Shown here: positions 55,000-58,599 of the stretch, in pieces | Layout of the letters: each line of letters opens with the position of its first letter | Position numbering within the stretch: the stretch's first letter is position 1 | From: an uncultured delta proteobacterium | GTDB lineage: Bacteria > Desulfobacterota > Binatia > UBA9968 | Assembly (NCBI GenBank): GCA_963771465.1 | Contig: CAVYTU010000017.1 | Span: 256,001-320,000, forward strand | Direction of reading: 5' to 3' | Length of the DNA stretch: 64,000 nucleotides | The notes under the pieces: generated by a model | The model's database searches: none | What the model was told of the DNA's origin: nothing | The model's input: the letters and a program-made list of their open reading frames with translations, nothing else | Made by a program: the position numbers and the translations under genes

Positions 55000-55953
55000 A
55001 TGCCATCGATTGGTTTGATCGGACTCGGCAACGCGGGGCGGCCGATGGCGGAACGGATTCTCGCCGCGGGGTTTTCGTTGACGGTTTATGACATTGATGC
55101 CGCGGCGCTCGAATACGCCGTCGAGCGCGGCGCGGCGCTGGCAAGTAGTGCACGCGAAGCGGTGCGCGACATTACCATCACGCTTTTGCCCTCGTCGGTC
55201 GAAGTGCGCCAAGCGGTGCTCGGCGAAAACGGCGCGCTGAGCGCGCTCGGAGCGGGCAAGGCGCTCATCGATCTCAGCGGCACCGACCCGGATTGCGCTC
55301 GCGAGTTAAGCGAGCGGCTCGGAGAAAAGCAAGCAGTATTTATCGGCGGTACGATCCACGCCAGCGGCGCGCCAGCCGTTGTGATCCCCAACGGGCAATT
55401 TGCCATCGTCATCGGCGGCGAGAAGGCGGCAATCGAGCCAGCGGCGAAGTTTTTGAATAGCTTAGCGCAGACTGTGATCTGCCTGCCCGAGCCGTGGATG
55501 CCCAAGGCATTCAAGATTGCGATCATTTTATACGCGACGACAAACAACATCATCAGCGCCGAAATTTGTTCATGGCTAACGGCCCAGGGCGCTGACCCGA
55601 AATTATTCCTCAAGCTATTACAAACCACCGGCTCGCAAGCTTCGGCGTCGCGCATGGAAGAGTTCATGAAGCGCAACAACAACGACGGCGGCGCGCTCAG
55701 CAACAGCTACAAAGATTTTCGCCAGGCGCTGAACATCGCCGCTAAACTGGAAGTCCCCATGCCGCTGGCGTCCATGGCAAATCAGATTCAAGAGATGGGG
55801 CGAGCGACGGGGTTGAAGCGCTTCAACAGTCCGGCGGCGATGGGCAAGCTCTATGAACTCATTAGCGGCGCAGATCTAAGCGATGCGACCGTGCCGGCCA
55901 ATAAGAAAATTCCAGCAAGCCGCGAGCCGAGAATTATTTTTCTCGACAAGTGA
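55000..55953 (+). CDS. NAD(P)-dependent oxidoreductase, beta-hydroxyacid dehydrogenase family
   Basis: IGLIGLGNAG Rossmann motif, catalytic K in KAFKI, KD...A C-domain. Confidence 0.85.
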   Translation: MPSIGLIGLGNAGRPMAERILAAGFSLTVYDIDAAALEYAVERGAALASSAREAVRDITITLLPSSVEVRQAVLGENGALSALGAGKALIDLSGTDPDCARELSERLGEKQAVFIGGTIHASGAPAVVIPNGQFAIVIGGEKAAIEPAAKFLNSLAQTVICLPEPWMPKAFKIAIILYATTNNIISAEICSWLTAQGADPKLFLKLLQTTGSQASASRMEEFMKRNNNDGGALSNSYKDFRQALNIAAKLEVPMPLASMANQIQEMGRATGLKRFNSPAAMGKLYELISGADLSDATVPANKKIPASREPRIIFLDK

Positions 55954-55981
55954 CGCAATTGTAAATATTTGAAAATAACTC

Positions 55982-56010
55982 TTGACTTGATTATGCGGCG
56001 GCGTTAGGAA
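55982..56010 (+). promoter_or_regulatory. Putative sigma70 promoter for the 56 kb RNA element
   Basis: AT-rich UP-like tract, then TTGACT-N17-TAGGAA (weak -10). Confidence 0.4.
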
Positions 56011-56015
56011 GCAAT

Positions 56016-56428
56016 TAGAGCGAGCGATTAGCGCAATGAGAAGCAGAGCGAGGCTCACGCGAGCTTCAGCTGCTTCATGAAATGGAGGAGTTCATGAACG
56101 AACAAGACACTCCACCGGGCCATTGGCGCCCGCTAGCGGCGGGCGCGGGCAGGTCGATGAGCTTAACAGTTGGATATCGAGCTGCGTGAATCGAGGCCGC
56201 AACTTCGGCACCAGAAGGTGCGAACCCGTAATCGGGTCAATCAGAAGGACGGGCCTCCCTCAAAAAAGCAGTTCCGTCAAATCCATCCAACGTTAGCTCA
56301 ACGCGAAGCAGTGCCAAGCGAAAAGCCAGCTAGCGGGGCGGGCTAAAAAAATTCTAAATCGCTAAGTATCGACGCGATAGCGTCGGCAAACGGGCAACCG
56401 AACTCCAGAGGTTGCCCGTTTTGTTTTT
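56016..56428 (+). ncRNA. Candidate large structured RNA (unknown family)
   Basis: No long ORF. Nested helices 56023-31/56354-63 and 56158-75/56285-300 enclose several tetraloop hairpins. Ends in an intrinsic terminator. Confidence 0.6.
56388..56428 (+). terminator. Rho-independent terminator
   Basis: AAACGGGCAACC-N10-GGTTGCCCGTTT followed by TGTTTTT. Confidence 0.85.
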
Positions 56429-56480
56429 GTGGCAAAACCTCATTCGGAGTATGGTTCACAACATGGGCGCTGGCGGAGAG

Positions 56481-57173
56481 TTAACTCAGAAGCCGGCCGT
56501 AGCCCTTGACCGGAATCTTCATCCCGAGCGTTTTCATCACCCACCCGAGCGATGCAGCGGTGGACGACACTACAGGCCGTCCAGTGTCATCTTCTAATTC
56601 CTGCACGTATGCGACTGTGCGCCAGCGGCCTTGAAGCAGTAGGCTTTCGACTTCTGGATGCGCGCGGCGACTTTGTAAGAAGCGTAATCCGGCAGCTTCA
56701 CCTGGTCGACCGGCTTGGACACGTTCAATCCTGCGATGGCCAAAACCTTGACGCCACCGTCGTCGTAGTATTTTTTGATTGATTGGTTGATGGATTCCTT
56801 ATACGCCGTTGCAATAATAGTCTTGACCTGTAAATGCTTAAGCGCTTCGACCGTCGCGCTCATCGCTGTGCTGACCGGCAGGCCGACTTGTTGTGAAAGC
56901 TTGGCGACGACTTCCTGTTCCGCTGCAAAACCTCGCTGGGTTCCGAGCGTAATTCCGCCCATCAGGATCGCGTCGCACTCCTCGGCCTTGAAAATGCCCA
57001 GACCAGTGCGGAGGGCGGCGATCGCTTTGTTAAATTCCGCTTCAGTGTGCGACTGGACGTTGAGTCCCGACGAGACGATCGTGAAGCCTTTGGGTAGGGT
57101 GAAACCCCCAATCCGATGGGTTTTCAAAAACCGATGGTGATAAATAGCCAATGCGCGCTTTCCAACCAGACAT
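56481..57173 (-). pseudogene. Maleate isomerase/arylmalonate decarboxylase (Asp/Glu racemase fold) homolog with two frameshifts
   Basis: Three frames reconstruct MSGWKARIGYLSPS... / FTLPKGF...PDYASYKVA / HPEVESLLLQGRW...ELEDDTGRPVVSS...GYGRLLS*. SD AGGAG. Confidence 0.75.
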
Positions 57174-57429
57174 GTTGCGGCTCTCCTCGTGATGAATTTT
57201 TATTATCCCCAATGTTGTGGAGATAGAAAGTCTGCTTTTGTCGCGCCGCTAGTGTCAAGGAAGTCGCCAGCATCGCTGGAATAGCAAAACGATGGATTAG
57301 CCGAGTAAAGTAAGGTATTATTTTTGAAATTCTTTTTCCTAACGTCTAATCATTAGGAATAATTCGATTCTACGCTCAATCGCGCGTGTAAGTATAGGAA
57401 AGGATAGGGTTAATTTCTCAGTATATCTT

Positions 57430-58599
57430 ATGAATTTAAAAGGGTTTATGCGTTTCAAAAAGCTGCTTGTTATGGTTGGATTCGGTGCCATCGTCGCGCT
57501 TCTATTATTCAGTTCGGAAGTTCGCTCGGCGAGCAGCGAGCTGGAGTTTAATCGTCGCGCTACGGCGACTGCCCAGCTGTTGGCCGGTATCACACCGAAC
57601 CCGCCGGAGCCGGCATTTTTCAAGTTCATCGAGCTCGATCCTTGGAAAGAGCATCAAAAATGGATGTCGACCCAGTGGGCGCTAGTGCGCGCCCGCTTGA
57701 ACATCGTGGAAAATTGGCGCGATCATGAAATCAAAATAGGCGGCGCGCACAAAAAAACCATGATCTACCCGTTCAGCGGTCCCGATTTCATCAATCCGTA
57801 CGCGCTGTTTCCAGACCATTCACGCTATGTCTTTTTCAGTTTGGAACGGCCCGGCTCATTACCGGACATGGAATCGGTGACGCCGGTTCAATTTGTGAAG
57901 TTGTTGAACGACGTGCGCGGCGCGTTTCGCGATATCTTCGAGCGCAATTATTTTATCACCTCTTATATGACCAAGCAGCTTACCACGCCGTGGGTGCGCG
58001 GCGCCGTGCCGGTGATGGCGACGATGATGGCGCTGATGAACCGCCGTATTGTGCGCATCGAGCCGATCGATCTATTTCCCGATTTGACCAAAGCGTACGA
58101 TACGCCGGAAGGTAAGCGGCCGCGCATGCTACTTCGCGGCGTGCGCATCGAGTTCGCCAACCCGGCAACTGCCGTAACGCAGCAGCTTTACTATTTCTCA
58201 ATGGATGCTACCGACAAGGCGCAAGAGTACTATCCTGATTTTCTCAATTGGGTTGGACAGCACAAACCCTCGACGGTGTTGCTCAAGTCGGCATCCTACT
58301 TGTTGCACGACGAACAATTTGCCAAAACTCGGGCGATGGTGTTGGAATCCGCCGATATCCTAGTCCAAGATGACACGGGTATACCTTATCGTTATCTCAA
58401 CCAAACGCCGTGGCATGTGAAGCTTTATGGCAAGTACCATAAACCGGTCAGACCGATGGGATACGCTTACCAGAAGGACTTAGACTTAGCCTTTAAGGAC
58501 AAGACGGTGACTGCGGACCTGCCTTTCTCGTTCGGTTATCATTGGCGCGGCAGTCAGTCTGGGTTAATTTTGGCGAATAAGGAACGCAGTTCCAATTAG
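57430..58599 (+). CDS. Hypothetical exported protein (YPFSGPD motif)
   Basis: Signal peptide. YPFSGPDF, NYFIT, KSASYLLH, QDDTGIPY and FGY motifs. Function not recognised. Confidence 0.75.
   Translation: MNLKGFMRFKKLLVMVGFGAIVALLLFSSEVRSASSELEFNRRATATAQLLAGITPNPPEPAFFKFIELDPWKEHQKWMSTQWALVRARLNIVENWRDHEIKIGGAHKKTMIYPFSGPDFINPYALFPDHSRYVFFSLERPGSLPDMESVTPVQFVKLLNDVRGAFRDIFERNYFITSYMTKQLTTPWVRGAVPVMATMMALMNRRIVRIEPIDLFPDLTKAYDTPEGKRPRMLLRGVRIEFANPATAVTQQLYYFSMDATDKAQEYYPDFLNWVGQHKPSTVLLKSASYLLHDEQFAKTRAMVLESADILVQDDTGIPYRYLNQTPWHVKLYGKYHKPVRPMGYAYQKDLDLAFKDKTVTADLPFSFGYHWRGSQSGLILANKERSSN

Follow-up and report, generated by a model that had tools for sequence, protein, structure and literature searches.

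The element described here lies in a stretch of DNA of 64 kb (64,000 nucleotides (nt); contig CAVYTU010000017.1, positions 256,001 to 320,000 of the forward strand), referred to below as the window, from the genome of an uncultured member of the Binatia (G000; 6.9 Mb, 19 contigs, 99% complete). Judged from its sequence, the segment 56018-56428 on the + strand of the window is a genuine RNA gene that has a promoter-like element and a terminator of its own. With a probability that we put at roughly 0.5, its product is a dual-function, translation-coupled structured RNA that constitutes a new family within one family of Candidatus Binatia. We prefer this interpretation because the fold, and not the encoded peptide, appears to be the main object of selection, yet a ribosome-loading site and the first ~20 codons of a small open reading frame (ORF) are kept as well.

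A first-pass annotation, made from the sequence of the window alone, had proposed an undescribed, lineage-specific large non-coding RNA in the gap of a convergent gene pair, and all the sequence elements that it named are present where it had placed them. The gap indeed spans about 530 nt without a long ORF, separating an ORF of 317 amino acids (aa) from ORFs on the minus strand, but a conserved ORF of 31 codons (56094-56189) preceded by a Shine-Dalgarno (SD) sequence had been overlooked. Accordingly, while the lack of an Rfam match, the restriction to one family and the covariation described below agree with that proposal, the term non-coding is unsafe in view of the conserved SD sequence and ATG.

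Promoter-like element and terminator

The transcription unit is delimited by the following features:

55955-55981 (+): A/T-rich tract resembling an UP element, seen in the sequence and at the same place in homologues; its function is putative
55982-55987 (+): -35 hexamer TTGACT, which reads TTGACA in nearly all homologues
56005-56010 (+): -10-like hexamer TAGGAA, 17 nt after the -35 hexamer; putative promoter
56018-56428 (+): predicted transcript of ~411 nt, its start placed from the putative promoter and its end from the putative terminator
56388-56428 (+): intrinsic terminator as read from the sequence, with a stem of 12 base pairs (bp; 56388-56399/56410-56421), a 10-nt loop and a U-tract to 56428

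The A/T-rich tract with TTGACT and the 12-bp terminator with U-tail, between which the first-pass annotation had set its RNA, are both borne out by comparison. In the alignment of homologues as well as in 10 divergent loci CTTGACA is conserved, a -10 hexamer of the TAG/TAA type, differing from TATAAT in its last position, recurs at constant spacing, and the terminator stem covaries (alignment columns 424-432 with 445-453; 17 genomes). Consensus scans for promoters and terminators on the + strand flagged neither element, because the -10 hexamer TAGGAA falls outside the scan rule and the 10-nt loop exceeds the range of 3-8 nt covered by the terminator scan; despite these misses both elements are conserved in the homologues.

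A fold supported by covariation

With a minimum free energy (MFE) of -175.7 kcal/mol, as compared to -136.7 +/- 6.2 kcal/mol for 100 shuffled sequences, none of which was as good (z = -6.3), the RNA folds better than expected by chance. The minus strand folds equally well (z = -6.45), and folding energy alone therefore gives no strand. The comparative analysis was based on 76 distinct full-length copies obtained after deduplication from genomes and soil metagenomes, plus 10 divergent copies from other genera. Read from 5' to 3', the homologues share the A/T-rich tract, CTTGACA, 17 nt, the TAG-type -10 hexamer, two hairpins (H1 and H2), a linker with GGAGG and ATG, then UCCNCCGGGC, GCCCGC, a 5-nt loop, GCGGGC and a long irregular helix, and further on a tip with a three-way junction, a distal CGGGC (X3), an A-rich linker, a GACGC/GCGUC hairpin and the terminator. 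In the window copy, the elements of the fold are:

56040-56076 (+): 5' hairpin H2 in the MFE structure, outer helix GAAGCAG/CUGCUUC (56040-46/56070-76), inner helix GAGGCUC/GAGCUUC, loop ACGC
56144-56174 (+): 5' strand of the long helix (the rod), identical with codons 17-27 of the small ORF; duplex test and covariation
56285-56321 (+): 3' strand of the long helix; duplex test and covariation
56177-56277 (+): tip domain with helix Pa (56177-85/56268-77), an internal loop containing UGA (56187-89) and a three-way junction; model R1
56193-56257 (+): helices of the junction, Pb (56193-98/56252-57), Pc (56208-12/56217-21) and Pd (56225-28/56233-36); model R1
56344-56369 (+): linker that is A-rich in all aligned copies
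56370-56385 (+): 3' hairpin CGACGC-GAUA-GCGUCG, conserved and covarying

The tip domain was aligned with a covariance model of 110 positions (R1; 87 copies, 76 of them distinct). In this alignment, which is fitted to the model and hence favours structure, 96.4% of the cells pair and 17 of the 23 pairs show changes in both partners (125 cells), while slid controls pair in 26-46% and none of 500 shuffles reaches any of the five measures used. The unpaired strands of the junction are nearly invariant. G-U pairs are frequent in this domain (one pair is U-G in 39 of 76 rows, another is G-U in 14 of 76), and as they would turn into A-C on the opposite strand, they point to the + strand as the functional one.

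For the long helix a column-wise scan of the MAFFT alignment was too noisy and was replaced by a register set by hand and by an alignment-free duplex test. With the register set by eye on an alignment that is not structure-fitted, 80.5% of the cells pair, as opposed to 25-43% in slid controls, and 17 of 19 pairs change on both sides, which none of 500 shuffles reaches. In the alignment-free test, the cognate strands of 67 copies form duplexes with a mean of -27.96 kcal/mol versus -22.27 +/- 0.45 kcal/mol for swapped strands (0 of 5000 permutations), the median duplex being 24 bp long. Covariation thus supports the three-way-junction domain and a long helix of about 24 bp.

These results lend comparative support to most of the helices drawn in the first-pass annotation, which had expected homologues with compensatory changes. 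The long helix, which it gave as 56158-75/56285-300, stands, as do the GAAGCAG/CUGCUUC hairpin with its inner hairpin, whose counterpart AAGAGC/GCUCUU in the homologues shows changes on both sides (columns 45-50/79-84 and 56-58/68-72; 17 genomes), and the hairpin before the terminator (columns 401-406/411-416, with GGCGC/GCGCC variants in L154 and L156). Within the multibranch domain GCACC/GGUGC and ACCCG/CGGGU are supported, but the proposed GACGG/CCGUC helix clashes with the covarying Pa and Pb. The outer helix of AGCGAUUAG (56023-31) and CUAAAUCGCU (56354-63) can be found in the window sequence but is not conserved, other members forming a local 5' hairpin instead. The 5' hairpin H1 (GCCCC...GGGG) has inner pairs that change together and is divergent in G000.

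A small ORF that reaches into the long helix

The ORF and its signals are located as follows:

56084-56088 (+): SD sequence GGAGG, 5 nt before the ATG
56094-56189 (+): small ORF of 31 codons plus UGA, MNEQDTPPGHWRPLAAGAGRSMSLTVGYRAA, delimited by comparison
56112-56120 (+): Pro-Pro-Gly codons CCA CCG GGC, containing a CGGGC (X1), invariant in the alignments

An in-frame ATG further upstream, at 56082, would extend the peptide to 35 aa. In the aligned rows GGAGG or AGAGG is followed by 4-7 variable nt and then by ATG, with a weaker motif in 2 of 76 copies, and in one copy (L153) GTG replaces ATG in frame. Of the 76 distinct copies, 70 have an uninterrupted frame from this ATG to the shared UGA, and the ORF is kept in divergent genera, its frame extending across 10 genera. 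When the start was picked from the SD sequence alone, which worked for 81 of 86 copies (five were dropped by the rules of the script), the distance from this start to the Pro-Pro codons amounted to 18 nt in 61 copies, 15 nt in 10 and 12 nt in another 10, i.e., to a multiple of three in 81 of 81, and the distance to the shared stop was a multiple of three in 74 of 81. The remaining two + frames are open in just 23 and 22 of these 81 copies.

The peptide (MTGEDSPPGQSSPLAAGASSS...) follows the pattern M-x-G-E-x-[ST]-P-P-[GC]-x-x-x-P-x-x-A-G ... R-A-[AV]. A type I toxin was rejected, since the peptide is hydrophilic, contains much Ser, Gly, Pro and Ala and lacks a hydrophobic stretch. Neither Pfam nor NCBIfam contains a family for it. 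When a profile built from eight peptides was searched against 1.84 billion representatives, 38 proteins scored at E <= 0.001; small ORFs of 31-100 aa account for 31 of them, and the 19 of the 38 that were examined all share one sequence type. The remaining seven are proteins of 695-4026 aa with repeated partial matches and are taken for low-complexity repeats.

Helices Pa and Pb are separated by the internal loop in which the UGA is located, and downstream of this stop, where the most conserved, non-coding parts of the RNA are situated, insertions and deletions do not come in multiples of three. Some public gene calls (P0004, P0006, P0011, P0014, P0018) translate the UGA as W and continue into the junction domain with extensions that are not conserved, probably a gene-caller artefact from alternative-code calling on short contigs. 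Read-through of the UGA, recoding and a SECIS-like reading were rejected, as the downstream frame is not conserved.

As to the accessibility of the start site, the SD sequence is predicted to be unpaired with a mean probability of 0.34 and the AUG with one of 0.59, against 0.37 for the whole RNA. The predicted partners of the SD sequence differ between members, so no consistent one was found, and sequestration by a junction-adjacent CUUCCUC was dropped as a candidate since, judged by eye, this motif does not co-vary with the SD sequence.

Alternative pairings and a palindromic loop

CGGGC occurs four times in the RNA, namely in the Pro-Pro-Gly codons (X1), after the local loop (X2), distally (X3) and in the 5' arm of the terminator, and GCCCG twice, within the ORF (Y) and in the 3' arm of the terminator. 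Y, X2 and X3 are located as follows:

56128-56144 (+): Y (GCCCGC, 56128-33) and X2 (GCGGGC, 56139-44), predicted to form a local hairpin, or Y to pair with X3; RNAalifold and ensemble calculations
56330-56343 (+): distal GCUAGCGGGGCGGGC (X3), a conserved CGGGC after the rod that is complementary to Y; alignments and divergent loci

That CCCGCUAGC has both a local and a distal partner, as suggested by the first-pass annotation, is true of the sequence, but covariation does not tell the partners of Y apart. The local hairpin is predicted by RNAalifold, its pairs barely varying, and thermodynamic ensembles of 66 copies give a pairing of 0.53 for Y-X3, 0.20 for Y-X2 and 0.12 for Y-X1; no pairing (0.0) is predicted between X3 and the terminator. 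For Y-X3, cognate strands (-17.43 kcal/mol) hardly differ from swapped ones (-17.12 kcal/mol; 544 of 5000 permutations reach the cognate value), which gives this pairing no support beyond its invariant core.

In 65 of 86 copies the region of hairpin H2 contains GCGCGC, situated in the apical loop where rows were read by eye. Other self-complementary variants are GCAUGC (L079), GUGCAC (L153), AGCGCU (L112) and CGCGCG (L149, L151). Such a palindromic loop in most members, though not in the window copy, suggests that the RNA may form kissing-loop dimers.

Distribution

The RNA gene is present in a single copy in G000. By BLAST it was found in 19 of 61 relatives (G000 included), all of them belonging to the same family, f1 (18 of 36), and in 0 of 24 genomes of two sister families; this is an undercount, as BLAST missed the copy of G006, which adjoins the neighbour gene according to the covariance model. 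With R1, copies were detected in 13 of 41 genomes and 10 of 23 genera of this one family, which is labelled Candidatus Binatia. In an even sample of the class the same model found 2 of 151 genomes, both of family f1; the 142 genomes of this sample that represent 18 other families had no copy. A degenerate 25-mer retrieved 15 stretches in species genomes, all in genomes already known to have the RNA, and 82 stretches in metagenome contigs, eight of which were judged to be chance matches; in viral contigs and plasmids there was no match.

In one relative, G014 (L137), the dehydrogenase-like and the Amdase-like gene that flank the RNA gene in the window are directly convergent, with about 50 nt between their stops and no RNA gene, which is a clean presence/absence difference within the genus. 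In another one, G024, an insertion of ~1.7 kb with matches to PF01609 and PF05598 follows the junction and rod region, and the 3' end of the RNA is found at the contig end.

Occurrence in RNA libraries

Of 24 listed public runs, 20 hold the stretch of the RNA wholly or partly and 17 at least half of the words sampled from it. Fifteen runs are on record as RNA, the source being 11 soil or rhizosphere studies, and four runs of merely 8-14 million letters hold 83% of the words. In all four runs examined, contigs lie on the RNA over 56031-56391:

Run X6: 56070-56391, word depth 1202
Run X9: 56042-56373, word depth 455
Run X2: 56031-56387, word depth 7-10
Run X1: 55843-56437, word depth 4, with low-depth contigs on the flanks

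Contig word depths such as 1202 and 455 reflect expression poorly, and one library is labelled 'Hybrid Selection'. X2, X6 and X9 have no contig outside 56031-56391, and such missing cover was not counted as evidence. Library adapters presumably account for the loose ends seen in the contigs of X6 and X9, and the contig ends are therefore not the ends of the RNA. This cover from RNA libraries is in keeping with the transcript proposed by the first-pass annotation.

Peptide, RNA or both

Both the covarying structure and the invariant junction strands argue for a function at the RNA level, and the wobble positions, which are frozen while the peptide varies, indicate that selection acts mainly on the RNA. 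In the dual-function interpretation, ribosomes would start at the SD sequence and AUG, for which there is no conserved pairing partner. Because the 5' strand of the long helix is made up of codons 17-27, ribosomes could not arrive at the stop without unwinding this helix, and the folded and the translated form would consequently be mutually exclusive. The fold would probably serve as a binding site for a protein or another RNA, translation, with its early and invariant Pro-Pro-Gly/Cys motif prone to pausing, may gate the amount of folded RNA, and in most members, though not in the window copy, the palindromic apical loop might bring about kissing-loop dimers.

A number of observations weigh against this interpretation. 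The frame is broken in its 3' third in 6 of 76 copies (L004, L018, L054/L093, L063, L080); these retain the first ~20 codons and differ only downstream, so that neither the C-terminal part of the peptide nor the exact position of the stop can be essential. One minus-strand frame (56092-56211 of the window) is open in 71 of 81 copies, and an open frame in sequence of such composition is therefore weak evidence by itself, although this one is taken as the usual mirror effect of a sense ORF. The SD sequence is of merely average predicted accessibility (0.34 vs 0.37), the case for translation, i.e., SD sequence, ATG, frame and in-frame insertions and deletions, is comparative only, and the gating of the fold by translation is an inference. 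The loop of the window copy reads ACGC and thus lacks a 6-nt palindrome, as do several clades, that of G000 included. The contigs from RNA libraries give neither strand, ends nor a reliable level, and such libraries may contain DNA. Finally, the RNA is dispensable, because in relatives it is either absent or disrupted by an insertion sequence: orthologues of the neighbour gene (~80% identity) have no adjacent RNA gene in G014, G007 and G008, and in G024 (contig C648, L029:194-1636 +) a gene for a 481-aa DDE transposase sits inside the RNA gene.

An unlikely, though by no means negligible, alternative is a purely non-coding RNA that yields no peptide, with GGAGG and AUG conserved at the RNA level, e.g., for pairing or for binding a protein, and the ORF kept open by nothing but the constraint on the sequence. 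The broken frames and the open minus-strand frame would fit such an RNA, as would the lack of a Pfam or NCBIfam family for the peptide. Moreover, the mean entropy by codon position (0.63 / 0.52 / 0.67) reveals no wobble excess, the third base of the conserved codons CCG, GGC, CCG, GCG, GGC and CGA is frozen in 49-51 of 51 copies, codon 6 has an invariant U in third position while its first two bases vary, and in some members GGAGG can pair weakly with a downstream UCCACC. Against such an RNA speak the fixed positions of GGAGG and ATG despite a spacer of variable sequence and length, the length changes between start and Pro-Pro, all of which are multiples of three, the other + frames, which are mostly closed, the lack of a conserved partner for the SD sequence and the in-frame GTG that replaces ATG in L153.

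The converse explanation, an ordinary small-protein gene in which the 31-aa peptide is the product and the structured 3' part stabilises the mRNA or tunes its translation, appears less plausible. It draws on the conservation of SD sequence, ATG and frame, on the small ORFs found by the peptide profile, and on codons that change synonymously: Pro7 (CCA 43 / CCG 8), Val26 (50 of 51 copies) and Ala30 do so exclusively and Leu24 mostly (43 of 51), whereas the wobble bases of the second Pro and of Gly are frozen. On the other hand, the peptide is of low complexity, variable and without a known protein family, changes radically at many positions (e.g., residues 12, 23, 25 and 27), tolerates frameshifts that replace its C-terminal third, and the near-invariant unpaired junction nucleotides past the stop would not be needed for mere stability.

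The dual-function interpretation can be extended to a bolder one, which we regard as improbable: the RNA might be the first of a new class of abundant, self-associating RNAs of soil bacteria that are switched by their own translation, and thus a sensor of translation status. Active ribosomes, or EF-P relieving the Pro-Pro-Gly pause, would melt the 24-bp rod and leave the RNA inactive or degraded, while in slow-growing soil cells the RNA would fold, dimerise via the palindromic loop and accumulate, its junction binding a cellular partner.

Regulation in cis of the neighbouring gene, either by a leader-peptide attenuator of antisense read-through or by a convergent antisense RNA of the GadY type overlapping the 3' end of that gene, is very improbable. 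What speaks for it is the gene arrangement: in 16 of 17 genomes examined the RNA gene is convergent with a gene for an Amdase / Asp-Glu-racemase-like protein (246 aa, PF17645), the sole exception being the insertion-bearing copy of G024, and the same convergence was judged by eye to hold for 5 of 10 divergent loci, with the stop of the Amdase-like gene only 0-65 nt away from the terminator of the RNA. The CGGGC/GCCCG repeats in ORF, X3 and terminator could in principle compete as well. However, the predicted X3-terminator pairing is nil, no co-oriented gene lies downstream, the ~250 nt of conserved structure from stop to terminator far exceed what an attenuator needs, in G000 the RNA is intact and covered by RNA-library contigs while the neighbour gene is in three pieces, and the orthologues in G014, G007 and G008 do without the RNA.

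Hardly any credence is given to a divergent housekeeping RNA (6S-like, or a second, tmRNA-like one) or an element of mobile, toxin-antitoxin or phage origin, as might be invoked by the rod-like part, the apparent abundance, the patchy distribution and the failure to detect 6S RNA in G000, because a canonical tmRNA is present (188 bits), the shape is multibranched with ~410 nt rather than a 180-nt rod with a central bubble, about two thirds of the family genomes lack the RNA, cleanly so in G014, the peptide is not toxin-like, the RNA gene occurs once per genome and its site is syntenic, and viral contigs and plasmids gave no match.

Comparison with known RNA families

At gathering thresholds Rfam 15 has no match in the whole window, and at E <= 10 the region 55800-56700 yields five sub-threshold matches to snoRNA and miRNA families (12-17 bits versus cut-offs of 40-100). 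This agrees with the first-pass annotation, which had seen no hallmarks of RNase P, tmRNA, SRP or 6S RNA. The first three of these are encoded elsewhere in G000, i.e., the tmRNA at C10:92569-92920, RNase P RNA (RF00010) with 309 bits and SRP RNA (RF00169) with 69.9 bits; 6S RNA (RF00013) was not detected there in a search that, as a control, finds it in only 5 of 14 well-known genomes. In the literature, as far as titles and the beginnings of abstracts go, nothing was found on this RNA or on the RNA biology of the Binatota.

RNase P and SRP RNA were rejected as identities on account of their genes elsewhere in the genome. A tmRNA was rejected because the locus has no RF00023 match and no tRNA-like domain, and its ORF has GGAGG and ATG and its 3' end a terminator; the RNA resembles tmRNA in being structured and seemingly abundant and in having a short internal frame that ends in ...RAA or ...RAV. 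With 6S RNA it has the long irregular helix and the apparent abundance in common, but it is twice the size (~410 nt as opposed to a ~180-nt rod), multibranched around a three-way junction, contains an ORF and, being present in 13 of 41 family genomes only, is absent from most genomes of its own family.

The leader-peptide transcription attenuators of the trp, his and thr operons likewise combine a promoter, an SD sequence, a short ORF, hairpins with alternative partners and a terminator, and the Pro-Pro-Gly motif would be prone to pausing. Here, however, the next gene is convergent, so that no co-oriented gene follows, ~240 nt of conserved structure separate the stop from the terminator, and neither an antiterminator nor any X3-terminator pairing is predicted; an attenuator of this kind was rejected.

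Dual-function small RNAs are known from Staphylococcus aureus (RNAIII/delta-haemolysin), Escherichia coli (SgrS/SgrT) and Bacillus subtilis (SR1/SR1P). As far as can be read from its sequence, the RNA is similar to these in being a stand-alone, structured RNA of a few hundred nt with an ORF of ~30 codons that looks translated, set in a body of the regulatory-RNA type. It has no relation to them in sequence or in Rfam, and differs in that half of its ORF lies within a 24-bp long-range helix, the stop is at the base of a three-way junction and the peptide seems less constrained than the RNA.

The large structured bacterial RNAs OLE, GOLLD, ROOL, HEARO and raiA, which are all represented in Rfam and whose functions are either unknown or a recent discovery, offer another comparison: like them, the RNA exceeds 400 nt, has many covarying helices and conserved junctions, is restricted to a lineage and is common in environmental RNA data, and the self-complementary loop of most members hints at RNA-RNA assembly. 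None of their models match, and the RNA is set apart by its SD sequence and ORF and by its range of a single family. The dimerisation initiation site of HIV-1 forms a kissing loop through GCGCGC or GUGCAC, and most members have such a 6-nt self-complementary sequence in the region of hairpin H2; the origin is unrelated, the dimer of the RNA is only predicted, and the loop has been lost in several clades, the window copy included.

Few structured bacterial RNAs reach 400 nt and show good covariation, and every one of them has led to new biology; the present one is found in the Binatota, an uncultured phylum of global distribution. Since many soil and rhizosphere RNA libraries hold the element, reads that were hitherto unassigned can now be named, and they may serve as a marker of Binatia activity. 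With half of the mini-ORF inside the long helix and its stop at the foot of the junction, the RNA would be a clean natural case of competition between translation and folding, which could be tested in vitro without culturing the organism.

Gene neighbourhood

In the window, the gap that contains the RNA gene is bordered by:

Stop at 55953 (+): 317-aa ORF for a protein like NAD-binding 3-hydroxyisobutyrate dehydrogenase; sequence and family match
Begin at 56481/56594 (-): minus-strand ORFs of the Amdase-like gene; ORF list

The upstream neighbour of the RNA gene differs among genomes and may be the dehydrogenase gene, a YciI-like gene or a gene for a DegP-like protease. Beyond the Amdase-like gene there follow a gene for a protein of ~390 aa and then one for an alpha/beta hydrolase. 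The ~390-aa protein (57430-58599 + in the window; L028:3106-4284) is conserved and has no match in Pfam or NCBIfam.

In G000 the Amdase-like gene (56487-57188, -) is split into three pieces in different frames (57188-57102, 57097-56657 and 56789-56487), being either a pseudogene or the product of an assembly error. In run X1 a related contig has 13 additional bases behind 56665, within the split gene.

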